Source: Candidatus Bathyarchaeota archaeon
GTDB taxonomy: Archaea > Thermoproteota > Bathyarchaeia > 40CM-2-53-6 > RBG-13-38-9
DNA length: 64,000 nucleotides
Assembly: GCA_963807605.1 (NCBI GenBank)
Contig: CAWECG010000004.1
Location: 599,090 to 663,089, forward strand
Direction of reading: 5' to 3'
Shown here: positions 18,962 through 64,000 of the stretch, piece by piece
Numbering within the stretch: the stretch's first letter is position 1
How the letters are laid out: the number at the start of each line of letters is the position of its first letter
Translations under genes and position numbers: made by a program
Notes under the pieces: model-generated
The model's database searches: none
What the model was told of the DNA's origin: nothing
Seen by the model: only the letters and a program-made list of their open reading frames with translations

Positions 18962-19569
18962 CGTGCCGTTACCTCCTTTACGGTGGCAAGTAGCTTCTTG
19001 GTCTTGTGGCTTCTGAGTCCATACAGCTTCGCTGAGAGAGAAGTGATTATGGTTATCAGATCCTGAACGAGCTCTTCCTGTGAAGAGATAAACTCTCTAT
19101 TGTTGACCGCCACGATCTCCGTTCCGAATTTCTCGCATAGCCATTGAATCAGGTCGAAGCCGAACCTTGCGAGCCTGTCCTCATATGTAACATAAAGCTT
19201 TGATACTTTCCTGTTCACGATGGCTTCTAGGAGCTTTCGAAGGTCTCTTCTCCGAAAGTTTAGCCCAGACCTGATGTCGCTGAAGACTTCTGCATCGGGC
19301 GAAGCGATCTCTTTTAGTACCCGGATCTGTCTCTCAAGGATTCCTTTCTGGTCATGGGAGGAGACTCGGGCGTAGATTGCTTCCCTTCTATCTTCGGGTA
19401 GACTGAGAACTCTTCTGATTTCGCTCTCGGGAATGCGTCTCATACCACTTGGAAGCCTGATACATTTTATCTTGCCCGCCCTATCCCAAACCTGAATTGT
19501 ATGCACGGTTACACCGAGAGCTGATGCAGCCTCTTTCGGACGGTAACTCTTCTCCACGCTGAAATACAC
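18958..19569 (-). CDS. tnpA: IS607-family serine recombinase/transposase with MerR-like HTH
   Basis: N-terminal MerR-type HTH (EAASALGVTVHTIQVWDRAGKI). Catalytic serine motif AIYARVSSHDQK. Confidence 0.8.
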   Translation of the reverse strand: MYFSVEKSYRPKEAASALGVTVHTIQVWDRAGKIKCIRLPSGMRRIPESEIRRVLSLPEDRREAIYARVSSHDQKGILERQIRVLKEIASPDAEVFSDIRSGLNFRRRDLRKLLEAIVNRKVSKLYVTYEDRLARFGFDLIQWLCEKFGTEIVAVNNREFISSQEELVQDLITIITSLSAKLYGLRSHKTKKLLATVKEVTAR

Positions 19570-29055: not shown

Positions 29056-29270
29056 CCTAAGTCCAACTGGGACTACGCCTTCGGAGCTAAAAGCACGTAC
29101 AGACGCCGCCCTAATCTGTACCTCTGCGGCAGAACCACTGAATGCCACAACCAGTAGCAATACTGGTTTAAGCTCTGTTGGCTTTGGCGAAGGGAAACTC
29201 GACTCTTGGCGGAGAGGGGCCGCAATCGGTAACATCCCCGTCACCTCCTCTGACGGAACACTTCTAATGC
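29015..29270 (+). ncRNA. predicted IsrB omegaRNA region (upstream of and overlapping the isrB 5' end)
   Basis: IscB/IsrB omegaRNAs are encoded directly upstream of the ORF starting at the left end. This ~250-nt segment has no convincing ORF; the leading 80 codons of the tracked 417-aa ORF are not IscB-like. Confidence 0.3.
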
Positions 29271-39808: not shown

Positions 39809-41180
39809 TTGACACTCCCCTGCCTAAAGATAGGGGATTCTAGCTTCTATCATGTTCATTGGTTGGTGGGTCACTGCCCTTCTAGGCTGCCACCTCATTC
39901 CATCCCATTTTAGAAGGTTAGGGTGCGTCATCACCCTGATAGCTGTTCCTTCACGTTGAAGGTTTGCCATTTTCAAGACTCCAATAGCATCCCTGTGAAC
40001 TTCCATCCCACACTCCAAGCATTTGAAGAGTCTGCCTTTTCTCTCAATGTTTTCTGAGCTGCATCTTATGCATCTGCTTGAAGTCTTGTATTCGCTGACT
40101 TCTTTTACTCTTATGCCGTATTCTTGTGCCGTACACTTTAGTCTTTGAATGATGTATTTGAAGCTCCAGAAGTTATGGATCATAGCGTTGCTCTTCTTTC
40201 CTTTATCGTTGCCGTCTCTGATGCCTGTTAGGTCTCCTATCACAATCTTTGAAACACCGAGATCATAGAGGTCTCTTACCATGACTCTTATCATGGTGTT
40301 GATGGCCTGCCGGAATCTCCGTTGCCTTATCCTGTACAGTCTATTGAGTTGCTTTGAACTTTTCTTGCCGTTGATTGTTTCAAGTATGCTCTGGCAGTCT
40401 GCTATTCTATCGACCCAGTACCACCAATCAGAGAGTAGATTTCTCCCACTGTATGCTATTGGTTGTTTCCATCCTTCAAGCCAGATGGTGAACAGGTTGA
40501 TTACACCGGGGTCGATGTAGCATGTCTTGGAGCCTTTCGGCTTGAATAATGGCCTAACCTTTACGGCCTGAAAGACACACCACTTTCCAGCCAAATCATC
40601 ATAGATGACCTCGGCTTTCCCCTGTCTTCCGCTCCATTTTGGCTTGCCTCGGATGGGCATCTTCAACTTCTTTGGTAGTCTCATCACTCCATCCTTTACA
40701 CTATAGCAGTCGTTCCTCAGAACCATCATCAGCCTGTATTTCCCATCTCTCTTCCAGTATCCTGGCATACACACCTTCTCCATGTTTGGCGGAAGTTTGC
40801 CTTCTCGCTCCAGCTGCTTTAATGCGAAGAAGCTTCTCCATGACTCGTTGCCCTTCCTGATGATCTGTTGAGATGTCGCCGAATCGATTAGTGGCGTATA
40901 CTTTCGATAGAGGTCTTTGCACTCCCAATTTAGGGGTTGATAGTTCATGTATGCCTGTCTTTTGCGGTATGTCGTCTCATTCCAAAGTTTGGCACAGTTG
41001 GTAGCTTTATCCCTCAGTATCCTCTCTTGCTCCACCATTGGATCAAGGATGAAGGTGTTGGTTCTACGCATGAAACTACCAGTATTATTATTGAAATACC
41101 AGACATTTAAGCCCCAAACGTCTCACTCTGGTCGCAATTCACCCCACCCCTGAAGGAGTGGGCTTTCTTGCTAGTTCAAT
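39809..41180 (-). mobile_element. family-A tnpB element, copy A3
   Basis: Right-end terminus TTGACACTCCCCTGCC at 39809. Left end ...GCTAGTTCAAT ends at 41180 with GTAA flank (TTAC on the gene strand). Confidence 0.75.
39824..41071 (-). CDS. tnpB: TnpB-like RNA-guided endonuclease, family A (intact)
   Basis: MRRTNTFILDP..., RuvC-like DxxxE...D residues, zinc finger CIRCSS...CLECG. Confidence 0.85.
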   Translation of the reverse strand: MRRTNTFILDPMVEQERILRDKATNCAKLWNETTYRKRQAYMNYQPLNWECKDLYRKYTPLIDSATSQQIIRKGNESWRSFFALKQLEREGKLPPNMEKVCMPGYWKRDGKYRLMMVLRNDCYSVKDGVMRLPKKLKMPIRGKPKWSGRQGKAEVIYDDLAGKWCVFQAVKVRPLFKPKGSKTCYIDPGVINLFTIWLEGWKQPIAYSGRNLLSDWWYWVDRIADCQSILETINGKKSSKQLNRLYRIRQRRFRQAINTMIRVMVRDLYDLGVSKIVIGDLTGIRDGNDKGKKSNAMIHNFWSFKYIIQRLKCTAQEYGIRVKEVSEYKTSSRCIRCSSENIERKGRLFKCLECGMEVHRDAIGVLKMANLQREGTAIRVMTHPNLLKWDGMRWQPRRAVTHQPMNMIEARIPYL

Positions 41181-41875: not shown

Positions 41876-43261
41876 TTAGGGCGTTTTTGAAAGAGACCAT
41901 AAATGGAGAAAAGCACTCCGCGTGTACAGCAAATGAAAGAGGTGAGCGAGCACAGGTGTAAGAGGGGTATAGTAGAACTCCCATCCAGTGAAGCGATTAG
42001 CAGAAGTCAAGAAGAAGATAAGGGTCCAGATGACCTGGAGGAACGTCAGCGACACCAGGAAATACCGTTGGCGTCCTCCGTTAAGATGAAGAAAAACTAT
42101 TGAGGTCAGGATTACGGATGAAGTGCTCATGAGAATGCCGTATTGAGGGAGTCTAACGGTTTGCAGAGCGAAGTAAAGAAGTGGGACTGAGGTCAATAGA
42201 GTTCCTATCGCAATCAGATCGGTTACTCGGCGTTTGATGACTGATATGCAAATCTTGTACAGGGCAAGCGGATAGACGAGAATCTCGAATGGTGTGCTGT
42301 ACATCGCTTGGATGTAGACCATGTACCACCACGGGCTTTGAACAGCCTGCGATGGGTCCGCATAGAAGTCAGGTTTCGAAGAGAGTGGATTTGAGCCGAC
42401 GTGCGGCCAAGGCAACCCCGATAATTGTTTTCTGGGGATTAAGAATGGATTTCCAGGAATCTTGACTGGTTGACCAACTGTAAGATGGATTCTGTTGTAT
42501 ATCCAAACCTGTGAGAGATGGACAAGTGGGCTTGACCACAGATAAGGCTGAACCGCGAAAACCACGAACGCAACGATCCAGAGGAAAACCGCCATTGACT
42601 TCCATTCCGATTGAAGTCTCCTCTTATAAAGCAGGATTCCTAGCAGCACGAAGATGCCGATGAACGCATAGTACTTACTTGCGATTGATAACGCAAACAG
42701 GACTGCACTTAGGTAGAAATGTATCGTCTTCCCTCCTTTGACATATCGAAGGAAGAAGACCACCGAACACATATAGAAGAAAGCCATTCCAGGGTCCAAC
42801 AGACCATACGATGATTCTGCAATTGAGATCGGGTCGAAGGCCAGTACAACGCATGGAATGATCGCGCCCATATGCGTACAGCCCAGATCTCTCGCTAGAA
42901 AGTAGACGACTAGAACTGTCAGCGTGCCCATGATCACGGAGACGAGACGAATTGCGCCAATACTCCCAGGTAACCACGGGAACAGGAACACAATTTTTCC
43001 GTTAGCGCCAAAAAGCACGGTGCTGCCGGCAAAGAGGAGTTTCATTACCATGGGGTGCCCAATGTTTGCCGTCCAAATTCCACTCAAGTATGATTGAGCC
43101 GCTGGCGCATACGTAAATGCCTCGTCATAGTCAAGTGCCGCAGACGTAGCGAGTAGAAAACGCAGCAAGAACGCCATGAAAATAATAATAACGAGTTGGA
43201 TCAGCTTGTTGTACTGTTCGTTATCTAATTGTGTGCCGACACTCCGAAATGTTTTGACCAA
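41876..43261 (-). CDS. GT-C fold glycosyltransferase, PMT/ArnT-like (paralog 3, divergent)
   Basis: N-terminal loop ALDYDEAFTYAPAA (DE motif). About 12 TM helices. Confidence 0.55.
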   Translation of the reverse strand: MVKTFRSVGTQLDNEQYNKLIQLVIIIFMAFLLRFLLATSAALDYDEAFTYAPAAQSYLSGIWTANIGHPMVMKLLFAGSTVLFGANGKIVFLFPWLPGSIGAIRLVSVIMGTLTVLVVYFLARDLGCTHMGAIIPCVVLAFDPISIAESSYGLLDPGMAFFYMCSVVFFLRYVKGGKTIHFYLSAVLFALSIASKYYAFIGIFVLLGILLYKRRLQSEWKSMAVFLWIVAFVVFAVQPYLWSSPLVHLSQVWIYNRIHLTVGQPVKIPGNPFLIPRKQLSGLPWPHVGSNPLSSKPDFYADPSQAVQSPWWYMVYIQAMYSTPFEILVYPLALYKICISVIKRRVTDLIAIGTLLTSVPLLYFALQTVRLPQYGILMSTSSVILTSIVFLHLNGGRQRYFLVSLTFLQVIWTLIFFLTSANRFTGWEFYYTPLTPVLAHLFHLLYTRSAFLHLWSLSKTP

Positions 43262-44662: not shown

Positions 44663-46035
44663 TTGACACTCACCCGCCTAAAGGCGGGGTGATTCTAGCT
44701 TCTATACTGTTCACCGGTCTAGTGTTCACTGGCCTGTTAGCCTGCCACTTCATGCCATCCCACTTTAGAAGGTCAGGGTGCGTCATCACCCTTACAGCTG
44801 TTCCTTCACGTTGAAGGTTTGCCATGTTCAAGACTCCAATAGCATCCCTGTGAACTTCCATCCCACACTCCAAGCATTTGAAGAGTCTGCCTTTCCTCTC
44901 AATGTTTTCTGAGCTGCATCTTATGCATCTGCTTGAAGTCTTGTATTCGCTGACTTCTTTCACTCTTATGCCGTATTCTTGTGCCGTACACTTTAGTCTT
45001 TGAATGATGTATTTGAAGCTCCAGAAGTTATGGATCATAGCGTTGCTCTTCTTTCCTTTATCGTTGCCGTCTCTGATGCCTGTTAGGTCTCCTATCACAA
45101 TCTTTGAAACACCGAGATCATATAGATCTCTTACCATGACTCTTATCATGGTGTTGATGGCCTGCCGGAATCTCCGTTGCCTTATCCTGTACAGTCTACT
45201 GAGGTGCTTCGAACTTTTCTTGCCGTTGATTGTTTCAAGTATGCTCTGGCAATTTGCTATTCTATCAACCCAGTACCACCAATCTGCTAGGAGGTTTCTC
45301 CCGCTGAATGCTATTGGTTGCCTCCATCCTTCAAGCCAGATAGTGAACAGGTTGATAATGCCGATGTCGATGTAGCAGGTCTTGGAGCCTTGCGGCTTGA
45401 AGATTGGCTTTATTTTAACAGCCTGAAAGACACGCCACTTCTTATCTATGTTATCATAGATGACTTCGGCTTTCCCCTGTCTTCCGCTCCATTTTGGCTT
45501 GCCTCGGATGGGTATTTTCATCTTCTTTGGTAGCTTCATCACTCCATCCTTCAGGCTGTAGATGTCGTTTCTCAGAACCATCATCAGCCTGTACTTTCCA
45601 TCTCGCTTCCAGTATCCAGGCATACACACCTTCTCAATATTTAGTGGCAGTCTGCCTTCTCGCTCCAGCTGCTTTAATGCGAAGAAGCTCCTCCATGACT
45701 CGTTGTTCTTCCTGATGATCTGTTGAGATGTCGCCGAATCGATTAGTGGTGTATACCTTTGATAGAGGTCTTTGCACTCCCAGTCCAGGGGTTGATAGTT
45801 CATGTATGCCTGTCTTTTGTGGTAGGTTGCCTCATTCCAAAGTTTAGCACAGTTGGTAGCTCTTTCTCGCAGTATCCTCTCTTGCCCCACTGTTGGAGCA
45901 AGGATGAAGGTGTTAGTTCTCCGCATGAAACTACCAGTATTATTATTGAAAAACCAGACATTTAAGCCCCAAACGTCTCACTCTGGTCGCAATTCATCCC
46001 ACCCCTGAAGGGGTGGGCTTTCTTGCTAGTTCAAT
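44663..46035 (-). mobile_element. family-A tnpB element, copy A4
   Basis: Right-end terminus TTGACACTCACCCGCC at 44663. Left end ends TTCAAT at 46035 followed by GTAA. Confidence 0.75.
44670..45926 (-). CDS. tnpB: TnpB-like RNA-guided endonuclease, family A (intact)
   Basis: 418 aa, collinear with copies A3 and A5. Confidence 0.85.
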   Translation of the reverse strand: MRRTNTFILAPTVGQERILRERATNCAKLWNEATYHKRQAYMNYQPLDWECKDLYQRYTPLIDSATSQQIIRKNNESWRSFFALKQLEREGRLPLNIEKVCMPGYWKRDGKYRLMMVLRNDIYSLKDGVMKLPKKMKIPIRGKPKWSGRQGKAEVIYDNIDKKWRVFQAVKIKPIFKPQGSKTCYIDIGIINLFTIWLEGWRQPIAFSGRNLLADWWYWVDRIANCQSILETINGKKSSKHLSRLYRIRQRRFRQAINTMIRVMVRDLYDLGVSKIVIGDLTGIRDGNDKGKKSNAMIHNFWSFKYIIQRLKCTAQEYGIRVKEVSEYKTSSRCIRCSSENIERKGRLFKCLECGMEVHRDAIGVLNMANLQREGTAVRVMTHPDLLKWDGMKWQANRPVNTRPVNSIEARITPPLGG

Positions 46036-48245: not shown

Positions 48246-49621
48246 TTGACACTCCCATGCCTAAAGACAGGGGATTCTAACTTCTATCATGTTCATCGGT
48301 TGATGGGTCATAGCGTTGTTGCGCTCCCACCTCATTCCATCCCACTTTAGAAGGTTAGGGCGTGTCATCGCCCTGTTAATGACTCCCGCAGGAAGCTTAA
48401 CCCCCTGAGTGAGTCCTATATTTACAACACCAATAGCATCCCTATAAGCCTCCAATCCACATTCTAGACACTTGAAGAGTCTGCCTTTCCTCTCAATGTT
48501 CTCTGAGCCGCATCTTACGCATTTGCTCGATGTTTTGTATTCGCTAACTTCTCTCACTCTTATGCCGTACTCTTGCGCTGTATACTTTAGTCTTTGAATA
48601 ATGTAGTTGAAGCTCCAGAAGTTGTGGATTATAGCGTTGCTCTTCTTTCCATTATCATTGTTCTCTCTTATGCCTGTCAGATCTCCTATCATAATCTTTG
48701 AAACACCGAGATCATAGAGGTCTCTTGCCATGCTTCTTATCATGGTGTTGATTGCTTGTCGGAATCTCCGTTGCCTTATCCTGTAGAGTTTGTTGAGTCG
48801 CTTCGAACTCTTCTTGTCGTTTATTGTTTCAAGTTTGCTCTGGCATTCTGCTATTCTATCGACCCAGTACCACCAATCTGCTAGGAGGTTTCTTCCACTG
48901 TATGCTATTGGTTGCCTCCACCCTTCAAGCCAGATGGTGAACAGGTTAATTACACCAGGGTCGATGTAGCATGTCTTGGAGCCTTGCGGCTTGAATAATG
49001 GCTTTGTTTTAATTGCCTGAAAGACACGCCACTTCCCATCAACCTCATCATAGATGACCTCGCCCCTACCCTGCTTACCATTCCATCTAGGTTTACCTTT
49101 GAAGGGTATCCTCAGTCCTTTAGGTAGTTTCATCACTCCATCCTTTACACTGTAGCAGTCTTTTCTCAGAACCATCATCAATTTGTATTTTCCATTTCTC
49201 TTCCAGTATCCCGGCATGCATACCTTCTCAATATTTGGTGGCAGTCTGCCTTCTCGCTCTAGCTGCTTTAATGCGAAGAAGCCCCTCCATGACTCGTTGC
49301 ATTTCCTGAGTATTTGTTGTGTTGTCGCTGAATCGATTAGTGGTGTGTACTTTTGATAGAGGTCTTTGCACTCCCAATCTAGGGGTTGATAGTTTACGTA
49401 TGCCTGTCTTTTGCGGTAGGTTGCCTCATTCCAAAGTTTGGCACAGTTAGTAGCTCTATCCCTCAGTATCCTCTCTTGCTCCACTGTTGGAGCAAGGATG
49501 AAGGTGTTAGTTCTCCGCATGAAACTACCAGTATTATTATTGAAAAACCAGACATTTAAGCCCCAAACGTCTCACTCTGGTCGCAATTCATCCCACCCCT
49601 GAAGGAGTGGGCTTTCTTGCT
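48246..49621 (-). mobile_element. family-A tnpB element, copy A5
   Basis: Right-end terminus TTGACACTCCCATGCC at 48246. Left end ends TTCAAT at 49621 followed by GTAA. Confidence 0.75.
48261..49520 (-). CDS. tnpB: TnpB-like RNA-guided endonuclease, family A (intact)
   Basis: 419 aa, collinear with the other copies, zinc finger CVRCGS...CLECG. Confidence 0.85.
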   Translation of the reverse strand: MRRTNTFILAPTVEQERILRDRATNCAKLWNEATYRKRQAYVNYQPLDWECKDLYQKYTPLIDSATTQQILRKCNESWRGFFALKQLEREGRLPPNIEKVCMPGYWKRNGKYKLMMVLRKDCYSVKDGVMKLPKGLRIPFKGKPRWNGKQGRGEVIYDEVDGKWRVFQAIKTKPLFKPQGSKTCYIDPGVINLFTIWLEGWRQPIAYSGRNLLADWWYWVDRIAECQSKLETINDKKSSKRLNKLYRIRQRRFRQAINTMIRSMARDLYDLGVSKIMIGDLTGIRENNDNGKKSNAIIHNFWSFNYIIQRLKYTAQEYGIRVREVSEYKTSSKCVRCGSENIERKGRLFKCLECGLEAYRDAIGVVNIGLTQGVKLPAGVINRAMTRPNLLKWDGMRWERNNAMTHQPMNMIEVRIPCL

Positions 49622-51558: not shown

Positions 51559-53082
51559 TTGGTCGATTTGGAGCCTAGTGCTGATGTTCTGAAGACGACC
51601 AGGGGCTCTGTGAGCCTCATGGCTCAGAGTGCTCTTAACTCTGCTTTGGGCTTGGTCTTCTTCATTCTGCTGGCCAGATTAATTACAAAGCCCGAGATGG
51701 GCATATACACGGCTCTAATATCCACCTACGGAGTCTTAAGTGTGGTCGGGGTCTTCGGGCTGAGCGGAGCCGCGGCGCGATTTATACCTGAACTAATTGC
51801 TGAAGGATCGTCTGAGAAAGCTTCCTCCGCGGCTATAACGATCATCAAGATATCAGTAATCTCATCAATAATAGCTTCAGCCGCTTATTTTGGCCTCGCC
51901 CCTTACTTCTCTTCTATCTTTGCTAAATCAGTAATCTATACAGATCTGTTTAGACTAGCATCGATCGTGATTTTGACGCAGGCGCTCTCAACCGTTGTTG
52001 ACGGCTTGATGCAAGGCGTACAGGAGTTCGGCGTGCTGGCTGTTATCCGAGTTGTGGGACAGATAGCAAGAATCTTTGTAACAGTTCTCTTATTGTTGAT
52101 CGGCTACGGGCTTGTGGCTGTGTTGATCGGCTGGGCAGCATCCGGCATATCTATCTCGGTTCTCCCGATTCCCTTTCTTAGGAGGCGTCTTGGGCTAAAG
52201 CGGGATCCCTACCCAGAGAGGGTGATTCTCGATTTTTCGATTCCACTTCTCGGCGCAAATCTGCTACTCTTCATCTCGTCTTACGCCGACGTCTTTGTGA
52301 CTATGATCTCCTCCGTACCTGCCAAAGTTGGAGCTTACAATGTGTCTATTACGGCCTCGTCGATGCTTCTCAATGTGGTAATCGCATCTATGACGGCGAC
52401 ATTGCTTCCCGCCTTGTCCAGAGCATATGGCAAAGGCGGACAAAGAGCGGTGGAGGAGTCGCTGAGAAGAGCAAGCAGGTATGTGGCTTTGATCTATATT
52501 CCTGTTGGATTGGGGTTTGCAGCCTTGTCCCAGCCGATTATCTGGTTGATGGCGGGTAGAAGTTATCAAGAGGCCGTCTTTCCCTTGGCGATGATCTCCA
52601 TCTCCTCAATAGCGTCAGGTCTGGTTGTGCCAATTACTCTTGGACTTCAAGCCTTAGGAAAGACCGCGACCGTCCTCAGAATCACAGTAGTCGCATTGAT
52701 TGTTGAAATTCTGGTTGGCTTGGTGACCGTACCTGTTATTGGGATTCTAGGCGCATCTATCGCCAGATCTGTCCTTTTTGTCTCCACCTTGATCTACGGA
52801 GTTTTCGCAGCTAGGACATTCATGCGCATAAGCTTCGATCGGGAGGCTGTTTGGAAGAGTGGGTTGGCAGGAGGCGTTATGGCTATCGCTGTTGCTGAAC
52901 TGCAGGCTTTCCATACTTCAGTAGTGCTTCTGCCTGTATACGTGGCTGCTGGTGTCTTTACATATCTTTTAGCGCTGAAGGTGTTGAGAGGGTTGAGCGG
53001 TGCAGACATCCTAGTCATCGAGGGAACCTTACCTGAAAGCCTAAGATGGACGATGAAGCCAATCCAAAGATTATTCGATTGA
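51559..53082 (+). CDS. MOP-superfamily oligosaccharide flippase (Wzx-like polysaccharide biosynthesis protein)
   Basis: About 14 TM helices. Typical flippase length and topology. Confidence 0.6.
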   Translation: MVDLEPSADVLKTTRGSVSLMAQSALNSALGLVFFILLARLITKPEMGIYTALISTYGVLSVVGVFGLSGAAARFIPELIAEGSSEKASSAAITIIKISVISSIIASAAYFGLAPYFSSIFAKSVIYTDLFRLASIVILTQALSTVVDGLMQGVQEFGVLAVIRVVGQIARIFVTVLLLLIGYGLVAVLIGWAASGISISVLPIPFLRRRLGLKRDPYPERVILDFSIPLLGANLLLFISSYADVFVTMISSVPAKVGAYNVSITASSMLLNVVIASMTATLLPALSRAYGKGGQRAVEESLRRASRYVALIYIPVGLGFAALSQPIIWLMAGRSYQEAVFPLAMISISSIASGLVVPITLGLQALGKTATVLRITVVALIVEILVGLVTVPVIGILGASIARSVLFVSTLIYGVFAARTFMRISFDREAVWKSGLAGGVMAIAVAELQAFHTSVVLLPVYVAAGVFTYLLALKVLRGLSGADILVIEGTLPESLRWTMKPIQRLFD

Positions 53083-53987
53083 CAATCAAGAGATCATTTT
53101 CAAAAATGCGCCATCTCTTCAAAGTACTATTACTGGGGCTTCTTGCATTATCAGGGGCCCTCTTGGTCTATTCTTTCTCGGATTTATCGAAACATCAACC
53201 TCTCCAAACTCCGTTTTCAACAACTGCTAATCTCACTTCCCTGCAAACCGAGGCTTACTCAACTTCAACCTTTACTTATTTCACAAATTCTAATCCTGTT
53301 CCAGTTTATACGTACAGAGTGGTCAACGTCTATCCTCATGACCCAAACGCCTTCACAGAAGGCTTGGTTTACGAGAACGGCTTTATGTATGAAGGAACTG
53401 GGCTTAATGGACGCTCCTCTCTGCGCAGAGTGGAATTGGAGACAGGAAAGATTCTGCAGATTCGTACGTTGCCAGACCAATTTTTCGGCGAGGGCGTAAC
53501 CATTTATGGAAACAAGATCATCCAGTTGACATGGAAATCCCATGTCGGCTTTGTCTACGATAAAGATAGCTTTGAGTTGCTACAGAATTTCAACTATCCA
53601 TTTGAGGGCTGGGGCATTACACATGATGAAAGGCGTTTGATCGTAAGCGACGGTACATCGACACTTCATTTCCTGGATCCTCTAAGCTTTGAGGAGATAG
53701 GTCAGGTTAAAGTATCTGACAATGCTGGGCCTGTGACCAACCTCAACGAACTGGAATACATCAAAGGGGAGATATACGCCAATGTCTGGCAAACCAACTT
53801 GATCGCTAGAATTAATCCTCAGACAGGTCAAGTGACTGGATGGATAAATCTTCAAGGACTTTTAGGAGCGTCCAGTCAACCTGTCGCTGAACTCAACGGT
53901 ATCGCTTATGACGCTGAGGGTGATCGGTTGTTTGTAACCGGAAAGTTGTGGCCTAGCATATACGAGATCAAACTGGTCAACAATTAG
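53046..53987 (+). CDS. glutaminyl-peptide cyclotransferase (plant/bacterial beta-propeller type)
   Basis: YPHDPNAFTEGLVYENGFMYEGTG, SSLRRVELETGKI, FGEGVTIYGNKIIQLTWK, ITHDERRLIVSDGT, GEIYANVWQT. Signal/TM segment at the N-terminus (start likely an internal Met near 53108). Confidence 0.65.
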   Translation: MDDEANPKIIRLTIKRSFSKMRHLFKVLLLGLLALSGALLVYSFSDLSKHQPLQTPFSTTANLTSLQTEAYSTSTFTYFTNSNPVPVYTYRVVNVYPHDPNAFTEGLVYENGFMYEGTGLNGRSSLRRVELETGKILQIRTLPDQFFGEGVTIYGNKIIQLTWKSHVGFVYDKDSFELLQNFNYPFEGWGITHDERRLIVSDGTSTLHFLDPLSFEEIGQVKVSDNAGPVTNLNELEYIKGEIYANVWQTNLIARINPQTGQVTGWINLQGLLGASSQPVAELNGIAYDAEGDRLFVTGKLWPSIYEIKLVNN

Positions 53988-55106: not shown

Positions 55107-56440
55107 CATGTGACATCCTCCCACGGCTAAAGTCGTGGGCTTCCCGCTTCAACATCTTTGCTTACCATTCCCCTTAGGGATGGCAGAGGCTTAGACTCTA
55201 CGGGCGTGTTCACCCACCGTCCGTGGGCATAGTCGGGTTTGAAGCCTGACAGACCAATCTTCTTGATTAGTTTAGCTGAATTCTCGTCTCTTGGAAGAGA
55301 CTCACCGCAATTCGGGCATATATGATCTCTCTCGCTCAGGTCTTTCGGCACCCATGATAGGCAGTTGTGGCAGAATTGTGTGGTACCCCATGGGTCGACC
55401 GGCATGAACCATTTGCCGAGCAGGTTGGCTTTGAAACTGGTTTTCCGTATGAATGTTCCTGGTGAGGCGTCTTGAATGCTTTTGGCTAGGCGGTGGTTTC
55501 TCATCATGTTGATTACAGACAGTTTCTCCAAGAATAGGACATCGCTGGTTTTGTACAGTGTTGCTAGTGTCTTGTTTTGCTGGTCGTCTCTCTGACATGC
55601 TACATGATGGTGTTGCCTTGCAAGTCTCAAAGCCAATTTTCTCCTATTTCCTGAGCCCTTCTTTGCTCTTGACATTACTCGCTGCAGCCTCTTGATCTTC
55701 TCCTCAGACTTTCTCAGAAACTTCGGTGGCTCCATCGTGATTCCATCTGAGAGTGTCAGGAACTTAATCAGCCCTATGTCTCCACCTTTGATCCGCTCAT
55801 CTGGAATCTTCTCGATGGGGGTCTTCTTTTTATCTGGAATTTTGCAGGCGAATATCACATACCATTGTCCAGCATTGTACTTTACAGTCAAAGTTTTGAC
55901 TTGACCTTCCACCGGTCTATGCATGAAGAGTCGGACATTCCCTATCCCCGAAAGGTACAGCTTATTGTTGCACAACTTGAAGCCTGATTGTGGATAGGTG
56001 AAGGAGAGATACTTCTTTGAATGTTTATTTTTGGGGAATCTTGCTCTACCCTCAAAGTAGTTCTTGAATGATTCTCGCAAGCCTTGTAGCAACGCTCTGG
56101 ACGACTTGGCTATGTATTCCATGAAGATTCTCGTCTTCTCGTCTAAACTCTAGCGCCTTCAGCCTCAAGTCGGTTCTGCTCAAGCTGACATGCTCCTGTT
56201 TCCAAGTACCAATCTTCAGATCCCTAAGTTTATTGTATAGCTCACACAATGCGGATAGGTGGCTTTTCATCAGCCTTCCCTGCCCCGCCCTGGGGTAGAT
56301 ACGGTACTTGTAGGCTAGAAGCATCTCAGCACCTAACAAATATATGTCGGCCCAGAAACTTAAGCATCTAGCACCTCACTCTGGAACGCAATTCATACCA
56401 CGGTTAAAGCCGTGGGTTTTCTTGCGAATCTTCTATAAGG
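55107..56440 (-). mobile_element. family-B tnpB element, copy B2 (gene frameshifted)
   Basis: Right end TGTGACATCCTCCCACGGCTAAAGTCGTGGGC at 55107. Left-end hairpin CCACGGTTAAAGCCGTGGG at ~56400. Confidence 0.6.
55127..56339 (-). pseudogene. tnpB: tnpB family B, frameshifted (pieces 56052..56339 and 55127..56122)
   Basis: The two overlapping ORFs align to the N- and C-terminal parts of the copy at 36045..37241. Confidence 0.7.
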
Positions 56441-57342: not shown

Positions 57343-58086
57343 CTACGAATGATCCCATTTTACTGTGAAGCTTGTGCCACCAGTAAGTCCTGATGGCTGG
57401 GCCTTGATAGTTCCGGTGGATGTTGTCATGGTTAGTGCATCATATTTCCATGCAGCATCGTTTATGTTGCCGGTGTGTCCGTTCAGAGTTGCTTGAGCGT
57501 TTTTGAAAGTAACAGTTCCAAAGTCTGCTAGTGGTAGAACTCCACCTGAGGAGGGTGCCTCTGCGATCCATTCAGCAGACGTTCTCTTAGCATTTGGCAG
57601 TGTCTGAGTTGTCGAGAAAGTTGTTTTGGCTGTGACATCGTTGATTGTCAACACGAAGCTACTCGGAGCCGAATATTTGACTTCCGCAGTGATTGAATCT
57701 CCTGGATGAATTGTCATCTTTATTGTTGCAGAAGATTTAGGATACATTTCATACCAGGCATAGTATGTTGGTGTGCCTGAAGGGGAGTCAGAATCTGTTC
57801 CTATCTGCTCAACAGTATTGGAGGAGTAGCCGTCTATCCCGATCCAAAAAGATGAATATCCGTTTGGCTTGGCTGAGACTGACGGGACTGTCCAGGTGCC
57901 TTTCACATCTGTTACTGCTCCAGTCTGAGGTTTGCTAAGACTTGTTTCAACTGCATAACCTGACCAGTTCAGGCTTGTTCCGTCTTTTATGTGAATCCTT
58001 GGAGCATGGTCTAAAAGCGGTCCTGAAGACGCTAAAGATGGAGTAAGCAAAATGGCCAGTATCAATAAGGCATAAACAGACTTCAT
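57343..58086 (-). CDS. secreted G1-family (eqolisin-like) glutamic peptidase
   Basis: Start at the internal Met gives signal peptide MKSVYALLILAILLTPSLA. NWSGYAV (catalytic Gln region), WIGIDG, and AEWIAEAP (catalytic Glu region) match G1 peptidases. Confidence 0.55.
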   Translation of the reverse strand: MKSVYALLILAILLTPSLASSGPLLDHAPRIHIKDGTSLNWSGYAVETSLSKPQTGAVTDVKGTWTVPSVSAKPNGYSSFWIGIDGYSSNTVEQIGTDSDSPSGTPTYYAWYEMYPKSSATIKMTIHPGDSITAEVKYSAPSSFVLTINDVTAKTTFSTTQTLPNAKRTSAEWIAEAPSSGGVLPLADFGTVTFKNAQATLNGHTGNINDAAWKYDALTMTTSTGTIKAQPSGLTGGTSFTVKWDHS

Positions 58087-58134
58087 AACTAGGAATTCCG
58101 CCACTGAACACTTAAAATTATCGCAGACGCGCTT

Positions 58135-58623
58135 TCTAGGCGCGAGCTTCGGGATATCTATCAGCCACAAAACCATCCACAAGATCCTTGTCAAAGCGGG
58201 GTTGAACAACTCCACCTCCAAACCCAGAAGAGTCTGGGGCAGGACCTGGTTCGAGCGGCCGTACAGCAACAACCTATGGCAAACCGACTTTAAGCTCACA
58301 TGGGCTGATGAGTGGGGGGGTCAGTTATCTGGACGATCTAGCCGTTTCGTTACAGGCTCAAGAATCCATCATGATCCAACAGCTAAACACGCCATCAAAC
58401 TCTTGAAGAAATCCATGAAACAGTGCGGGAAGCCAAAGATCTGACCGATCGAGGAATACAATTCTATCCAGGAAGAGGGGAAGGGCCCTCAACATTCACA
58501 GAGTTCTGCATGGGAAACGGTATACAACACATCGTTGCGAGCGTAAGAAGACCATCAATAATAGGTAAGATAGAAGTCCACAAAGCTTACAAATACGAAG
58601 CCTCGATGTTCCCAAACCAATAA
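58135..58623 (+). pseudogene. DDE (rve integrase-core) transposase remnant, IS481-like, frameshifted
   Basis: ISHKTIHKILVKAGL (HTH), NNLWQTDFKL (N-terminal DDE D region), GIQHIVASVRRPSIIGKIE (C-terminal rve). Spread over three frames. Confidence 0.5.
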
Positions 58624-58759: not shown

Positions 58760-59425
58760 TTGAGTAGGATGACATGGTTGAGGATGGTATGCGCCTTTGT
58801 CATAGTCCTGCTTATTTTCTTCTCAATCATAGCGTCGGCGACAGCCCAAGGCAAGCCAATTAACGTGGGTTTGGCTGCTGGCCTACCTCTGCCGATTGGG
58901 CAAACCTCCACCGTCACCGTCTCGGTTCAGGACATCTCGAACAGCTCGGTACAGATTATGTTCGTTGGACTTCGTTTTGACTGGAATAAACCAGGCGATT
59001 TCTACGTCGGCGATAGTAGTGACAAAGGGGCAATGTTGGCTGCTACTGAACAAGTGACATACAAAATACGGGTGGCGGTTCCTGACAATGCTTCGGCTGG
59101 AACTTACAAGCTTACTACATATGTCAGGTATCGTCTATCAGTAAGAGGGAATTGGACAAGTGCGATTGGAGCGAATTGGGTGTCAGATGTTCCGCTTGAC
59201 TATCCTAAGACTCAAAGCCAACAAACCAGCATTCAAAGCCAAGCTCAAAGTCAGAGCACTTCGGAGCAAGGAGGAACACAGCAAACATATAACCTGTCAA
59301 CTTACGGGATCGCAGCTATCGTAGCACTGGTCATAATCGTCGGAATCGCTCTATCTATTGGTCGTGTCAGGCGTCTTGAAGGAAAGCGGAAACGGGTTCC
59401 AAGCTCGGATTTGAGAAACTCCTAA
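58760..59425 (+). CDS. surface-anchored protein with N-terminal signal/TM, beta-rich domain, Gln/Ser-rich linker and C-terminal TM anchor
   Basis: The VGLRFDWNKPGDFY...VAVPDNASAGTYKLTTYVRY domain resembles VGLHFDWDPDGKYN...FTVPQNADLGYHFYDVKVQY near the C-terminus of 10428..12566. Confidence 0.5.
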   Translation: MSRMTWLRMVCAFVIVLLIFFSIIASATAQGKPINVGLAAGLPLPIGQTSTVTVSVQDISNSSVQIMFVGLRFDWNKPGDFYVGDSSDKGAMLAATEQVTYKIRVAVPDNASAGTYKLTTYVRYRLSVRGNWTSAIGANWVSDVPLDYPKTQSQQTSIQSQAQSQSTSEQGGTQQTYNLSTYGIAAIVALVIIVGIALSIGRVRRLEGKRKRVPSSDLRNS

Positions 59426-60520: not shown

Positions 60521-61906
60521 TTATCCGAAGGGCCTAACAGGAAAGAACCAGAGGAAAAATGCTAGGCCAGCCAGGACATAGACTGCAAGAAGAGCTTTTC
60601 CCCAACGTAGCATTTTGAAGGTAAATCCCAGGCCTAGAGCAATGAATGGCAGCGTGTATATCATGTAGTAGTTGAAGCCGATCTTGTGGGAGATCATGTC
60701 GAGAATAGCCCATGGAAGGTAGTTCGATGCGATCCCGACTGCTATGAAGAAAGCAGTTTCCACCTCTTTCCTGCGTGTGAATGCAAACGCCACTGCAGCT
60801 GCGACGAGCCATATTCCGTACCACAATGGAAGACTCGCCTGAGGACGATACCAGATTGGTATATATTGGGTGCGGATACCGCCTGATGTGGTAATGTAAC
60901 TCGTGCTAAAGTATGTTGGCGAGTTGAATGGGTCAACAGGAAGAATCCACAGTAGTGGATGGAAGAACGGTTCATCTGATGCGTTGAGGCCTAATGTAAC
61001 CTGAACATTTTCAATGTAAAGTAGATGTTGAATTGGGTTGGTTATCAGCTCTTGGCTTGTACTCTGACTTGTGCTAAAGATGGTTGTGAGAGCAGTCCCA
61101 TTGGGACTGACATTGATTGTGGGATAAACGTAGTTTGTGATAGATGTTGTCGCAACGGGTCTATATGCGGCGTCATAGATCCAGAAGAGGCTAGCGAAAA
61201 CTAGCAATGCGATCAAGGTGTAACGTAGACCAATCTTCAGGGCTGGTTTCAAAGAATGCCTATTGACGAACAGGTGGTAGAGGGCCAACGTAGCAAACGT
61301 GAACATGGCCATTTCTCTTGACAGAAACGCTAAACCCAAGCTTGCGGCAGACCAGCCGTAGTGTCTTCGGAAGTAGAGTTCAATGGCTAGAAACCCGAAT
61401 AGGAAGCTAGGCATGTCGATTAGCAGCAAGCCTCCATGAATAAAGAAGACGGGGTCGAGGGCAAGGAGCATCGTCGCACCTAGTGCCCACGGGTTACCGA
61501 GGAAGCGTCTCGCTATGAGGTAGAAGAGATACAGCACCGCTAATTGCATAATTACTTGGGGGAAACGCCACCCAAACCAATTATTCCCAAAAGCTGCAAT
61601 GCCCAGTGCGCCGATAATCTTGGGTAATGGTGGGTGTGCTGGATTTACGTCAATTCCCTGCAAGGTCTTCAGACTAGCCGGCACATAGTAAGTTTCATCG
61701 AAAACAAGGCTGCCGTTGGAGGGAAAAGCGATTTGAAGCATGTGAGCTGCAAAGTACAATAGCAAAAAGTCTCTGATGTTGAACTTGCTGAGGAGGTTGA
61801 TGCTGTAAGTCCAGATGCGTGGGAGGTTCAAGTCGGTTCCTACCCTCATACCTTTGACACTTCGGCTAGAATCTTGGGATGAGGTAGTGCGGGTGCGAAT
61901 GGCCAC
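60521..61906 (-). CDS. GT-C fold glycosyltransferase, GT39/PMT-like (paralog 2)
   Basis: LVFDETYYVPAS, HPPLPK. Aligns along its whole length with 32958..34301. Confidence 0.6.
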   Translation of the reverse strand: MAIRTRTTSSQDSSRSVKGMRVGTDLNLPRIWTYSINLLSKFNIRDFLLLYFAAHMLQIAFPSNGSLVFDETYYVPASLKTLQGIDVNPAHPPLPKIIGALGIAAFGNNWFGWRFPQVIMQLAVLYLFYLIARRFLGNPWALGATMLLALDPVFFIHGGLLLIDMPSFLFGFLAIELYFRRHYGWSAASLGLAFLSREMAMFTFATLALYHLFVNRHSLKPALKIGLRYTLIALLVFASLFWIYDAAYRPVATTSITNYVYPTINVSPNGTALTTIFSTSQSTSQELITNPIQHLLYIENVQVTLGLNASDEPFFHPLLWILPVDPFNSPTYFSTSYITTSGGIRTQYIPIWYRPQASLPLWYGIWLVAAAVAFAFTRRKEVETAFFIAVGIASNYLPWAILDMISHKIGFNYYMIYTLPFIALGLGFTFKMLRWGKALLAVYVLAGLAFFLWFFPVRPFG

Positions 61907-62705
61907 ACGAAGCAGTCGAATAATTGCGTAAGATACTTTGATTCAATGAGCTCAAGCTTCCGGATTTCCAGTTCACAGAGTTGGATGAAGTTCCTAATAT
62001 GCTAAGCGTCCTACCAGTTTTCAGAATTCATCTTCCTCTGACAGATACGGGGTCGTGTTCGTTGTTTTGCCCGCGTTCGTCTACCCAGTCAGGCCTATCT
62101 TGATCAAGAATGTTCCGGTACGCTTGACGTTGGGCCGATATTACAAGTTGATGGCGGTCTCGGCAAAGGGTTGTTAACGGTCAATGTGTCCGGCGGTCGC
62201 CCAAAATAGCTCGGGTCGATTTGGTGGTGTATCAACCGCTGCCAGGAACAAGATTCATATGACGACCCTCGAAACCCCACAGCGGGAGTCGGCCCTCTCG
62301 GAACAGGTGTGAACCCTAGACACTGTGACCGCAAGGGAGTGGCGGCGTCTAGTTGGACATTACGACAGGGACAGCGCTCCCACCAAGGGCCTCAGGCACA
62401 AACACTAACGGGTTTTTGGCCAGCAAGGAATGACAGACTAGTGGTGAAGAAGCCAGTAGACAAGACGGTATGACGGAGGTTGAGGGTTCAAAATGGTCAC
62501 GCTGACTATGAGCCCCTTCGGGTCGTCCCTGATTGACAGGTGGAGGGCGCTTCGTTGGTATGTCTTCCACGGAAGATGCTGACTGCGTTATGTCTAGCTG
62601 CATATTCAGGCTTGGAAATACTGTGAAATCCGCCGAACATCCGCCTCCGTGTAGACGAATGAAAGATGGGGATCAGAGGCGCGTCGGTAGAGAATCAGGG
62701 TGGTG

Positions 62706-64000
62706 TTAGGGCCCTCCGGGTCCTGGGGGTCCTGGCGGTCCTGGGGGTCCTGCGGGTTGCTGTACGGTGTTCCAAGCGTTGTCGTAGTCGTTTATCGCGT
62801 CGGCAGAGTGTTGTGGTGGATTGTTTGCAGCGTCCTGGTCGCCCTTGCTAAGTTGGTTCTGTGCCTGAGTTATCTTGTTCGGATTTTCTTTTGCAGTGAT
62901 GGCGTCGTTGATCGCGGTTAAAGCTAACTGTCGGTCAGCGCCGACTAGTTGGTTGATGAGGCTTTGCAATGTGCTCTTGTCAACTTGGCTCTTTGGATCC
63001 TTGATCATATCAGTCAAGGTTCTGACGACATCTGCCTCATCTTTGAAGACCTTGTCGCCTTGCTTCGCGCTCAAGTGGGAGGAATCAACCCAATCGGCTG
63101 GGCTGAGCGAGTCTTGCATGGAGGAGATAGCCTTGTCTAGTCTATCTTGGTCGGGCTTGAAGGTTGCCGTCGAGCGCAGTGAAACTAGGGTTTGGAGCAC
63201 GCTATTCTTGACATCCTTCGGCATCGCTCCTGTAGAAGTTTGAGTCTGAGTCACGGTTGTGGTTTCTGTAAGAGTATTGGTGACCGTAGCGGATTCGGTG
63301 GCGGTCTGAGTAGTCGTAGCCAATTTTGTGACAGGGCTCGTCACAGTAGCTGACTCAGTAGCAGTATTCGTCACCGTAACGTAGACGCTTGCAGTATTAG
63401 CTAGAGTAGAAGACGCTGTAGCCGTGTTAGTAACAGTAGCGGATTCGGTTGCAGTGTTAGTGATAGTAGCAGACTCTGTGGCGGTCTGAGTAGTCGTAGC
63501 CAATTCAGTAGCAGTATTAATCACAGTAGCCGACTCGAAAGCGGTGTTAGCGACTGTTGTAGACTGAGTAGCAGTATTCGTCACAGTAGCTGACTCAGTA
63601 TCCGTATTCGTAATCGTGGCAGACTGAGTATCAGTGTTAGTAATCGTAGCAGACTGAGTATCCGTATTCGTAATCGTAGCAGACTGAGTATCCGTATTCG
63701 TAATCGTAGCAGACTGAGTATCCGTATTCGTAATCGTAGCAGACTGAGTATCCGTATTCGTAATCGTAGCAGACTGAGTATCCGTATTCGTAATCGTAGC
63801 AGACTGAGTATCCGTATTCGTAATCGTAGCAGACTGAGTATCCGTATTCGTAATCGTAGCAGACTGAGTATCCGTATTCGTAATCGTAGCAGACTGAGTA
63901 TCCGTATTCGTAATCGTAGCAGACTGAGTATCCGTATTCGTAATCGTAGCAGACTGAGTATCCGTATTCGTAATCGTAGCAGACTGAGTATCCGTATTCG
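62706..64000 (-). CDS. Thr/Ser-rich 10-aa-repeat protein with helical C-terminal domain and collagen-like tail (N-terminus beyond window end)
   Basis: Reverse strand encodes (TQSATITNTD)n / (TATESATVTN)n repeats, then a helical region (…DKAISSMQDSL…LALTAINDAITAKENPNK…), ending ...QQPAGPPGPPGPPGPGGP*. The reading frame is open to the window edge. Confidence 0.6.
   Translation of the reverse strand, partial: NTDTQSATITNTDTQSATITNTDTQSATITNTDTQSATITNTDTQSATITNTDTQSATITNTDTQSATITNTDTQSATITNTDTQSATITNTDTQSATITNTDTQSATITNTDTQSATITNTDTQSATITNTDTESATVTNTATQSTTVANTAFESATVINTATELATTTQTATESATITNTATESATVTNTATASSTLANTASVYVTVTNTATESATVTSPVTKLATTTQTATESATVTNTLTETTTVTQTQTSTGAMPKDVKNSVLQTLVSLRSTATFKPDQDRLDKAISSMQDSLSPADWVDSSHLSAKQGDKVFKDEADVVRTLTDMIKDPKSQVDKSTLQSLINQLVGADRQLALTAINDAITAKENPNKITQAQNQLSKGDQDAANNPPQHSADAINDYDNAWNTVQQPAGPPGPPGPPGPGGP
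63601..64000 (-). repeat. 30-bp tandem repeat (TCCGTATTCGTAATCGTAGCAGACTGAGTA)n, at least 11 perfect copies, continuing beyond the window
   Basis: Direct reading of 63661-64000 shows identical 30-mers. Units at 63601 and 63631 carry 1 and 3 mismatches. More degenerate 30-nt units extend back to ~63250. In-frame coding for 10-aa repeats. Confidence 0.9.

Follow-up and report, generated by a model that had tools for sequence, protein, structure and literature searches.

The locus analysed here, from an uncultured archaeon, raises the question of whether a threonine-rich repeat protein and a membrane glycosyltransferase encoded beside it form an O-glycosylation pair, as an earlier note on this DNA had proposed. 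The machinery of archaeal protein O-glycosylation is unknown (PMC8241124), and PMT-domain proteins have been noted in archaea without an assigned function (PMC4973528). A GT-C glycosyltransferase with Thr-rich neighbours would be a candidate for such an enzyme. The window, that is, the whole 64,000-nt stretch analysed, contains the features listed in Table 1.

Table 1. Positions of the repeat gene, the GT-C copies and associated features in the window
Feature	Position	Strand	Details
GT4–methyltransferase–GT-C copy 2 operon, intact	32958..35954	-	conserved form of the unit
GT-C copy 2	32958..34301	-	PMT_2, 3e-14
Methyltransferase	34298..34786	-	in copy 2 operon; full-length paralogue of the remnant
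GT4	34791..35954	-	in copy 2 operon
GT-C copy 3, distant paralogue	41876..43261	-	PMT 3.5e-14, PMT_2; 22% identical to copy 1
Wzx/MurJ-type flippase	51559..53082	+	Polysacc_synt_3 E=1e-29, MurJ E=6e-11
221-aa surface protein	58760..59425	+	signal-peptide-like N-terminus, NPCBM_assoc, S/T/Q-rich linker, C-terminal TM anchor
Class I SAM methyltransferase, 254 aa	59687..60451	+	Methyltransf_11 E=2e-21; convergent with GT-C copy 1
PMT-like GT-C, copy 1	60521..61849 (ORF 60521..61906)	-	alternative starts at 61906 (GTG) or about 61831 (TTG)
Methyltransferase remnant, last 51 codons	61849..62001	-	gene intact upstream of GT-C in relatives
Unique non-coding spacer, ~700 bp	62004..62705	.	between repeat gene and GT-C; no long ORF, stops in all six frames
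C-terminal tail GPPGPPGPPGPGGP	62709..62750	-	stop codon 62706-62708
Six-helix C-terminal domain, ~160 aa	62757..63239	-	large family without a Pfam or NCBIfam model
Diverged decapeptide units, ~13	63249..63640	-	consensus N-T-A-T-E-S-A-T-V-T, (T-x)5 pattern
Perfect array	63641..64000	-	12 identical 30-nt units encoding NTDTQSATIT; 0 mismatches among units 0-11

The visible part of the repeat protein is its C-terminal 430 residues; the N-terminus lies outside the window, the frame being open up to the edge at 64000 with both the array and the ORF running on past it. Where at least 11 repeats identical at the DNA level had been noted earlier, 12 were visible (TRF score 803, period 30, 95% matches), and together with the older units they bring the array to 25 or more Thr-rich decapeptides with Thr or Ser at every second residue. 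The DNA of the diverged units has degenerated to 4 to 16 mismatches per 30 nt, yet the encoded peptides still follow N-T-[A/D]-T-[E/Q]-S-A-T-[V/I]-T. One unit type, now present in at least 12 identical copies beside the diverged ones, has been amplified recently; very recent expansion or contraction had been proposed. This amplification probably occurred by replication slippage or unequal recombination, so the copy number likely varies between cells. Codon differences between adjacent diverged units were 52 synonymous and 49 nonsynonymous, which indicates that the repeat codons are under purifying selection and hence, on this codon evidence, that the protein is translated. The repeats contain 40% Thr, 9% Asn, one Pro and no Cys, and the near absence of proline and the strict alternation are as compatible with a folded β-structure as with an extended stalk. 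There was no N-x-S/T sequon in the 430 visible residues; any glycan on this part of the protein would therefore have to be O-linked.

The array is followed by a C-terminal domain that the earlier note had described as helical, and AF2 with an alignment did predict six helices there (pLDDT 93.7). The domain had no sequence match in Pfam, NCBIfam or the PDB, and it belongs to a family of 1,399 representative clusters (phmmer, E<=1e-3) that spans bacteria and archaea. The family HMM matched the window domain over positions 2-159 (E=9.6e-64), and all invariant residues of the family are kept in it (L36, W52, D54, G63, F67, D104, A108, I151, Y154, A157 and W158 in the numbering of alignment A1). 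Across the 1,399 clusters, the module is nearly always at the extreme C-terminus of multidomain proteins, a position that the window protein shares. The upstream domains in the homologues are of extracellular type, namely, Beta_helix, PKD, HYR, DUF11 or CHRD instead of the Thr array, which preceded the module in none of the 150 best homologues. A T9SS sorting domain follows the module in some members, clear N-terminal signal peptides were present in 4 of the 10 members read, and 49 of the 92 members starting with Met have a hydrophobic N-terminus. By homology to these proteins, the repeat protein is most likely an exported, modular protein of the cell surface.

The gene order argues that the physical adjacency of the repeat gene and GT-C copy 1 in this genome is a recent rearrangement and not an operon. 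The GT-C ORF begins about 800 bp past the stop codon of the repeat gene. The claim that a PMT-type GT-C is the next gene on the same strand thus held for the strand, the motifs and the PMT_2 match, but the enzyme is not directly downstream. The intervening spacer had no Rfam match. Compared with the rest of the window and with the six loci L001-L006, it showed no repeat other than 39 nt shared with L004 where it borders the methyltransferase remnant. L004 is the closest relative, with a GT-C that is 86% identical. It is collinear with the window across the region of the 254-aa methyltransferase (85% nucleotide identity), and collinearity stops at 62003, next to the remnant. In a tblastn search with the 175-aa ORF of L004, residues 125-175 aligned to 62001..61849 with 59% identity. 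In L004 the C-domain gene is on the other flank of the GT-C and is truncated at its 5′ end, having some 35 T-rich residues and lacking an obvious start; the two C-domains share 71% protein identity and 81% DNA identity. Around ten more distant homologues of the GT-C, roughly 150 kb of sequence contained no C-domain protein. Because its GT4 and most of its methyltransferase have been lost, GT-C copy 1 may be a decaying duplicate.

GT-C copy 1, which is 100% identical to the database protein P0001, contains the motifs FDETYYVPAS and HPPLPK and at least five strongly hydrophobic helices. Among 27 homologues, no variation was seen in the DE motif (D51/E52) or at R95 and D132. The protein matched Pfam PMT_2 (PF13231; E=1e-11, 45.7 bits, gathering cutoff 26.1), as did all 27 family members, 5 of which also matched PMT (PF02366), although PMT_2 also covers ArnT-like proteins and a match to it alone is not discriminating. 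Profile alignment by hhalign was more specific: the family profile (A2) aligned with P0085, a protein of PMT+PMT_4TMC+PMT_2 architecture, at a probability of 99.4 (E=4.3e-21, 351 aligned columns), whereas E. coli ArnT (L007:4909-6558) gave a probability of 46 over 113 N-terminal columns only, in a comparison with one sequence of each type that is not a phylogeny. Grouping with ArnT, which had been named as the outcome that would speak against the proposed pair, was thus not what these two alignments gave. An identity as GT83/ArnT (the lipid A Ara4N transferase) was rejected for lack of full-length similarity to this one ArnT. The sole PDB sequence match was to 9i5k, a Dol-P-Man protein mannosyltransferase, at a marginal E of 0.012, and no ArnT chains were found at E<=1. 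By these profile comparisons, copy 1 is a true PMT-like GT-C that is closer to PMT than to ArnT. Many homologues are labelled "ArnT-like" by JGI annotators.

Compared to the GT39 PMTs (yeast Pmt1/2 and actinobacterial Pmt such as M. tuberculosis Rv1002c), which modify exported proteins in their Ser/Thr-rich parts while these are being translocated, the window GT-C shares the multi-pass GT-C architecture, the DE motif in the first outer loop (FDETYY versus FDEVHF in PMT) followed by HPPL(x)K, the matches to PMT_2/PMT and the full-length profile similarity to proteins of PMT architecture. It differs in being archaeal and about 440-460 aa long, and in having neither the C-terminal PMT_4TMC domain (PF16192) nor the MIR domain of the eukaryotic enzymes, neither of which was matched in the three window paralogues or in 84 close homologues. 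It also scored 32.8 bits against the cutoff of 800 for the NCBIfam equivalog of protein O-mannosyltransferase (NF058602), and its operon partners are a GT4 and a methyltransferase, not a Ppm1/Dpm1 synthase.

The two further paralogues, the GT4, the two methyltransferases and the flippase that had been listed around the pair were all confirmed by family matches. Copy 3 has a weak Agl23-like match, and copies 1 and 2 do not match the Agl23 model. The window contained neither a donor-synthase gene (GT2/Dpm1-like) nor STT3/AglB. The genes conserved beside the GT-C are the GT4 and a small methyltransferase (~160 aa), arranged as a GT4–MT–GT-C operon; this three-gene order was found in window copy 2 and at loci L006, L008, L012, L014 and L015. 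Thr-rich surface-protein ORFs lay within 1 kb of the GT-C or its operon in 7 of 11 instances, compared to 3.1 expected under random placement within the locus (P about 0.0015), in a post-hoc test whose thresholds were picked after the data were seen and which covers only 11 instances. These ORFs are unrelated, with signal-peptide-like N-termini and, in many cases, C-terminal TM anchors; one is pilin-like and another is at least 3,261 aa long. The 221-aa surface protein of the window is itself a conserved neighbour, with a homologue beside the GT-C in L004 and in L003 (49% identity in L003). Most of the Thr-rich neighbours elsewhere also carry N-x-T sequons, and therefore adjacency does not discriminate O- from N-glycosylation. 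In L002, the GT-C homologue adjoins two multi-pass membrane ORFs, one of them GtrA-like, which were identified by reading the sequences, and in L012 a gene of the Glycos_transf_4 family (polyprenyl-phosphate sugar-phosphate transferases) lies 5 kb from the GT-C.

Taken at the level of sequence, O-glycosylation of the repeat protein by a GT-C of this kind is plausible and supported in part. The PMT-like enzyme, the absence of sequons and the recurrence of Thr-rich neighbours speak for the pair; what did not stand is its status as a conserved pair or operon, given the spacer, the remnant and the gene order in L004. The full explanation that we put forward, tentatively and with its chances somewhat short of even, is that the repeat protein is an exported surface protein whose Thr array is O-glycosylated by the PMT-like GT-C family, and that it lies beside a decayed duplicate of the conserved archaeal GT4–methyltransferase–PMT-like GT-C operon. 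Export by Sec would come first. The array would then be glycosylated at the outer face of the membrane, with a dolichyl-phosphate-sugar as the donor, and the enzyme responsible need not be the adjacent copy. The outcome would be a stiff, glycan-bearing stalk by which the helical module is presented or anchored, much like the serine-rich-repeat adhesins and the Thr-rich stalks of haloarchaeal S-layers. A wider and more doubtful possibility is that the GT4–MT–PMT-like GT-C operon provides the protein O-glycosylation machinery so far missing in these archaea, with the Thr-rich stalks of a whole range of unrelated surface proteins as its targets. If so, the Thr-decapeptide protein, the protein of at least 3,261 aa, the pilin-like protein and the TM-anchored proteins would all be its substrates, and the repeat protein would be an archaeal counterpart of the bacterial serine-rich-repeat glycoprotein fibres.

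The conserved partners can also be read another way. The GT4–MT–GT-C units and the Wzx-like flippase may assemble or complete a glycan on a lipid carrier, which could be an N-glycan, a polysaccharide of the cell surface or the head group of a glycolipid, with the GT-C transferring sugar from dolichyl-phosphate-sugar to the glycan or lipid at the outer face like H. volcanii AglS or mycobacterial PimE, and with surface-protein genes nearby merely because cell-envelope genes cluster. We consider this rather unlikely. It would explain why the GT-C is regularly accompanied by a GT4 and a methyltransferase rather than by a substrate protein or a Dpm1-type GT2, and it is in line with the flippase in the window, the Agl23 resemblance of copy 3, the "ArnT-like" annotations and the genes adjoining the GT-C in L002 and near it in L012. 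The archaeal PMT-like GT-C proteins AglS and Agl23 of H. volcanii and Agl1 of S. acidocaldarius act in N-glycosylation and depend on dolichyl-phosphate-sugars, and AglS extends an N-glycan (PMC4973528). The gene context of haloarchaeal N-glycan assembly by AglP/AglR/AglS, with a methyltransferase and a flippase, likewise resembles GT4–MT–GT-C plus Wzx. The window differs from these systems in that copies 1 and 2 lack the Agl23 match and AglB is absent. Against the lipid-linked reading, the full-length profile similarity is to proteins of PMT architecture and not to ArnT, and the visible repeat protein lacks sequons. Thr-rich neighbours would be expected to be enriched beside an enzyme that acts on proteins, though their enrichment is compatible with an N-glycan role.

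The repeats themselves allow a reading in which glycosylation plays no part and the GT-C is unrelated: the Thr decapeptides would fold as a β-solenoid of two sheets in which each coil takes up two decapeptides, the Val/Ile, Asn and Ala residues point inward and both faces carry flat TxTxTxT ladders. Such a surface fibre or adhesin would resemble curli or antifreeze proteins and would bind ice, water, mineral or polymer. A single-sequence AF2 model of the repeats is a β-solenoid that superposes on CsgA and MpAFP, but it was made without an alignment, and for perfect repeats AF2 is documented to yield confident yet unrealistic β-solenoids (PMC11795689). The TxTxTxT alternation and short regular period are shared with the Thr-ladder β-solenoids (insect and bacterial antifreeze and ice-nucleation proteins) and curli CsgA, to which the window repeats have no sequence homology. 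The young units place Asp and Gln where the core or turns would be, the recurrence of Thr-rich genes beside the GT-C family is left unexplained, and alternating hydroxy residues are also typical of heavily O-glycosylated serine-rich-repeat adhesins. A glycosylation-independent solenoid is unlikely on this evidence. Far less probable still, the perfect block may have been created in assembly, or the gene may be a pseudogene, in either case without biological function. The 12 identical units (360 bp) are longer than short reads and the window ends inside them, mobile elements are plentiful in the region (some 9 TnpB genes and one IscB), and the L004 copy is truncated. Nevertheless, all 430 codons are open, change in the older units is strongly biased toward synonymous differences, the C-domain retains every invariant residue and resembles the L004 copy at the identities given above, and the 732-kb source contig suggests a good assembly. 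The copy number of the array could be wrong, not its existence.

Among known systems, the serine-rich-repeat adhesins of Gram-positive bacteria (GspB, Fap1 and the SRRPs) offer a pattern for the O-glycosylated stalk proposed here, with alternating hydroxy residues in SASESASTSASV compared to TATESATVTN in the window. Their arrays are hypervariable in copy number and form heavily O-glycosylated surface fibres, and the Pgf operon of Streptococcus mutans includes membrane GT-C-like proteins. The window protein differs in having Thr instead of Ser, in being archaeal and in carrying a helical module instead of an LPXTG anchor. An SRRP-type system was rejected: the alternation is present, but there were no GtfA/B or accessory Sec genes (SecA2/Y2) in the window, and the likeness is a functional analogy. 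Glycosylation of a Thr-rich repeat by an operon is described for Cnm/Pgf in S. mutans (PMC5856776). The NCBIfam pentapeptide-repeat model penta_Alr5209 reached 24.9 bits on the window protein against a cutoff of 125.

Finally, the repeat protein ends in a Gly/Pro-rich tail that had been called collagen-like. This description was dropped, since tens of uninterrupted Gly-X-Y triplets would be expected of a collagen-like domain and the tail, at the extreme C-terminus, has fewer than five and is missing from most homologues; among the 19 aligned, a comparable tail was seen only in P0102. It reads GPP GPP GPP GPG GP, or 4.7 triplets (4.4 copies of a 9-nt unit by TRF), and the AF2 pLDDT was low over it.

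The most fitting description of the GT-C glycosyltransferases in the window is a separate short PMT-like family, rather than GT39. Copy 1, which adjoins the Thr-rich repeat gene and has the same sequence (100% identity) as database protein P0001 from a 732,006-bp NCBI/ENA contig, and copy 2 match Pfam PMT_2, and copy 3 matches PMT, in agreement with the earlier note, which had taken copies 2 and 3 for paralogs of copy 1. All 27 aligned homologues share residues D51-E52 (of FDETYY), R95, and D132. Only one PDB family, a protein mannosyltransferase that uses Dol-P-Man, was matched by the GT-C profile, and the match was marginal (E=0.012). In a profile-sequence comparison, not a phylogeny, with one PMT-type and one ArnT sequence, the profile aligned end to end over 351 columns with a complete PMT+PMT_4TMC protein (probability 99.4, E=4e-21), compared to 113 N-terminal columns of Escherichia coli ArnT (probability 46); within these limits, the grouping with ArnT that would have refuted the earlier note was not seen. 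However, PMT_4TMC and MIR domains are absent from the GT-C proteins, and against the NCBIfam PMT equivalog, for which 800 bits are required, they score 33 bits. Distant homologues, 31 to 37% identical, were found in Nitrososphaeria MAGs in a genome-contig scan. TBP and archaeal pilin genes were seen beside GT-C homologues, and the window itself has a TrmB regulator. Together with an "archaeon" MAG annotation, these findings were taken as evidence that the organism is archaeal.

The conserved partners of the GT-C are a glycosyltransferase of family 4 (GT4) and a small methyltransferase (MT) of ∼160 amino acids. The order GT4–MT–GT-C was found at copy 2 and at loci L006, L008, L012, L014, and L015 from other genomes, with identities of 57 to 69% for GT4 and 53 to 66% for MT. 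Copy 1, a duplicate with 63% identity to copy 2, no longer has a GT4 beside it, and only a fragment of its MT is left.

Copy 1 and the repeat gene, which the earlier note had read as a candidate O-glycosylation pair, are not paired as genes of one operon would be. An operon was rejected because the repeat gene stop and the copy 1 start are ∼800 bp apart, an MT remnant is present in this region, and the gene order differs in the closest relative, L004. The spacer between them contained no repeats and no Rfam family, and a promoter and terminator scan with a σ70 model, which is unsuited to archaea, was at background. The L004 GT-C is 86% identical to copy 1, and collinearity with L004 (85% nucleotide identity) extends from 58736 to 62003 and ends there. 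L004 does encode an orthologue of the C-terminal domain of the repeat protein (71% amino acid and 81% nucleotide identity), but on the opposite side of the GT-C, past a 254-aa methyltransferase and a 221-aa surface protein, in a gene that appears 5′-truncated. Linkage beyond this closest relative was likewise rejected, since a family HMM found no C-domain protein near ten more distant GT-C homologues in ∼150 kb.

The repeat gene is open for 430 codons from the window edge to its stop, and the N terminus and full length of the array (TRF score, 803) lie outside the window. The array has at least 25 units, those in the window being 12 that are identical at the DNA level, in line with the very recent change proposed earlier, followed by ∼13 with 4 to 16 mismatches per unit. 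The diverged units keep the peptide N-T-[A/D]-T-[E/Q]-S-A-T-[V/I]-T, in which Thr or Ser occupies every other position. Among the codon changes between adjacent units, 52 are synonymous and 49 nonsynonymous. Silent change at this level is far above the random-drift expectation, so the repeat frame is translated and under purifying selection. The repeat region is 40% Thr and 9% Asn with one Pro and no Cys, and despite the Asn content there is no N-x-S/T sequon in the 430 visible residues. The C-proximal end of the array, with its diverged units, is therefore old, and at the other end one unit type has been amplified very recently. The identical units point to copy number variation of what would be a surface structure.

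The protein ends in a ∼160-aa C-domain that has no Pfam or NCBIfam match. In a word-indexed protein search, it found no match as a sequence and just six proteins as a profile query. When 1.84 billion representatives were instead searched exhaustively with HMMER, at least 1,399 clusters (50% identity) passed E≤1e-3, and 525 of them passed E≤1e-10. The six-helix module defines a large family without a Pfam or NCBIfam model or an assigned function, common to bacteria and archaea and found in multidomain, apparently extracellular proteins. In most of the best 150 of the 1,399 matches, it is the extreme C terminus; in a minority, it is followed by either a ∼60-aa β-domain or a domain for T9SS sorting. 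The regions upstream are variable and of extracellular type (right-handed β-helix, PKD, HYR, DUF11, CHRD, and InlB B-repeat). Clear N-terminal signal peptides were present in 4 of 10 members examined in full, and 49 of the 92 members starting with M had a hydrophobic N terminus. A metagenome scan added one relative, 35% identical. AF2 predicted six helices with a pLDDT of 93.7, and the fold search returned generic helical bundles only (UPF0147, pectin-methylesterase inhibitor, and designed bundles), so that no function can be assigned from them. The end of the protein, GPPGPPGPPGPGGP, had been called a collagen-like tail; this was rejected because its 4.7 triplets are too short and the tail is not conserved, a comparable Gly/Pro-rich tail being present in only 1 of 19 aligned homologues (P0102). 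Pentapeptide-repeat matches were likewise not taken as membership, as they fell well short of the cutoffs.

In many genomes, unrelated Thr-rich proteins directly adjoin the GT-C or its operon. All GT-C loci analyzed were scanned for ORFs with a Thr content of 25% or more over 80 residues, and one lay within 1 kb of the GT-C or operon in 7 of 11 instances, the three copies in the window included, compared to 3.1 of 11 expected for random placement within the same loci (Poisson-binomial P of ∼0.0015). This enrichment favors a protein-directed GT-C but is suggestive only, because the thresholds were set post hoc, the sample of 11 is small, and cell-envelope genes cluster anyway. One such ORF, at least 3,261 codons long, starts 216 nt downstream of the GT-C of a GT4–MT–GT-C operon on the same strand, with a signal-peptide-like start and CarboxypepD_reg/fn3-like C-terminal domains; public annotation has ∼20 short antisense genes in its place. 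L003 encodes four signal-peptide proteins, three of them with a Thr-rich stalk followed by a C-terminal transmembrane (TM) anchor, the nearest being 317 nt from the GT-C. In L012, a protein absent from public gene calls combines an archaeal type IV pilin-like N terminus, RKAVSSYVATLFLIAITILMA, with a long Thr/Ser-rich C-terminal region. Further Thr-rich neighbors were found in L011, L014, and L015. The 221-aa surface protein is a conserved neighbor of the GT-C in three genomes (the window, L004, and L003, the last at 49% identity) and is an alternative candidate substrate. Genes for a peptidase A4 and a glutaminyl cyclase are close to the surface protein and glycosylation genes.

Features of the window and of related loci (window coordinates unless a locus is named)
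Feature	Location	Strand	Description
GT-C copy 1	60521..61906		Adjoins repeat gene
GT-C copy 2	32958..34301		Operon GT4–MT–GT-C, 32958..35954
GT-C copy 3	41876..43261
MT remnant	61849..62001	-	Last 51 codons; gene intact in L004, overlapping GT-C start
Spacer	62004..62705	.	∼700 bp, unique, noncoding; no ORF, stops in all frames
Repeat gene stop	62706-62708	-
C-domain	62757..63239	-	Six-helix module
Identical repeat units	63641..64000	-	12 units of 30 nt, zero mismatch; unit CGAATACGGATACTCAGTCTGCTACGATTA, encoding NTDTQSATIT
221-aa surface protein	58760..59425; L004 3047..3841; L003 11377..11982	+ (window)	Signal-peptide-like N terminus, NPCBM_assoc, S/T/Q-rich linker, C-terminal TM anchor
Peptidase A4 (scytalidoglutamic-type)	57343..58299	-	E=9e-39; hydrophobic signal-like stretch by eye
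Glutaminyl cyclase	53046..53987	+	E=2e-96
Thr-rich ORF	L008 11608..21390; L009 4099..13881; L010 9222..11396	+ (L008)	At least 3,261 codons, 36% Thr, uninterrupted
Pilin-like Thr/Ser-rich protein	L012 11606..12673	-	133 nt from GT-C, convergent
TnpB genes, ∼9	3227..4474, 17699..18961, 20264..21109, 22018..23295, 36045..37241, 39824..41071, 44670..45926, 48261..49520, 55127..56122		IS200/605 OrfB, Cas12f-like TNB
Serine recombinase	18958..19569		IS607-type, with one TnpB gene
IscB-like RNA-guided nuclease	28993..30280	+	NCBIfam guided_IscB E=1.6e-36; RRXRR

That archaeal surface proteins carry O-glycans has been clear since the early S-layer glycoprotein studies, yet no archaeal O-glycosyltransferase has been identified (PMC8241124), and no later paper identifying one was found in the library searched. 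Archaeal PMT-domain proteins were noted previously with no function given (PMC4973528). Taken together, these observations may be read as follows: the repeat protein, judging from its homology to C-domain family members, would be exported by Sec; the GT-C family, with a dolichyl-phosphate sugar as donor, would add O-glycans to its Thr array at the outer membrane face, yielding a stiff glycosylated stalk; and array length would change by slippage. We consider this combination plausible, although short of probable, and the O-glycosylation assignment a reasonable, testable candidate that falls short of a discovery. The enrichment of Thr-rich neighbors leans toward a protein substrate. An AglS-like action on a glycan or lipid, which we find somewhat unlikely, would fit the GT4, MT, and flippase context and has archaeal precedents (PMC4973528).

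It is also conceivable, but unlikely, that the repeats form a Thr-ladder β-solenoid that works without glycosylation. That the repeat feature is an artefact or a pseudogene is very improbable given the synonymous bias and the open frame. 

If Thr-array O-glycosylation by the GT-C family is true, archaea would have PMT-type O-glycosylation by a short PMT-like GT-C whose gene forms an operon with those of a GT4 and a methyltransferase. The candidate family is compact: its members are PMT-like GT-C proteins of ∼450 aa, most often part of an operon of three genes, and natural candidate substrates are encoded alongside. The very simple repeat makes peptide-based testing feasible.

The window contains no tRNA or rRNA genes and is rich in mobile elements (∼9 TnpB genes and an IscB), consistent with recent rearrangement around the GT-C. 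Nine or so TnpB genes per 64 kb is an unusually high density; one is accompanied by an IS607-type serine recombinase, and one is truncated. The 5′ end of the IscB gene in this apparently archaeal genome matches the HEARO/omega-RNA family (Rfam RF02033) at 90 bits.
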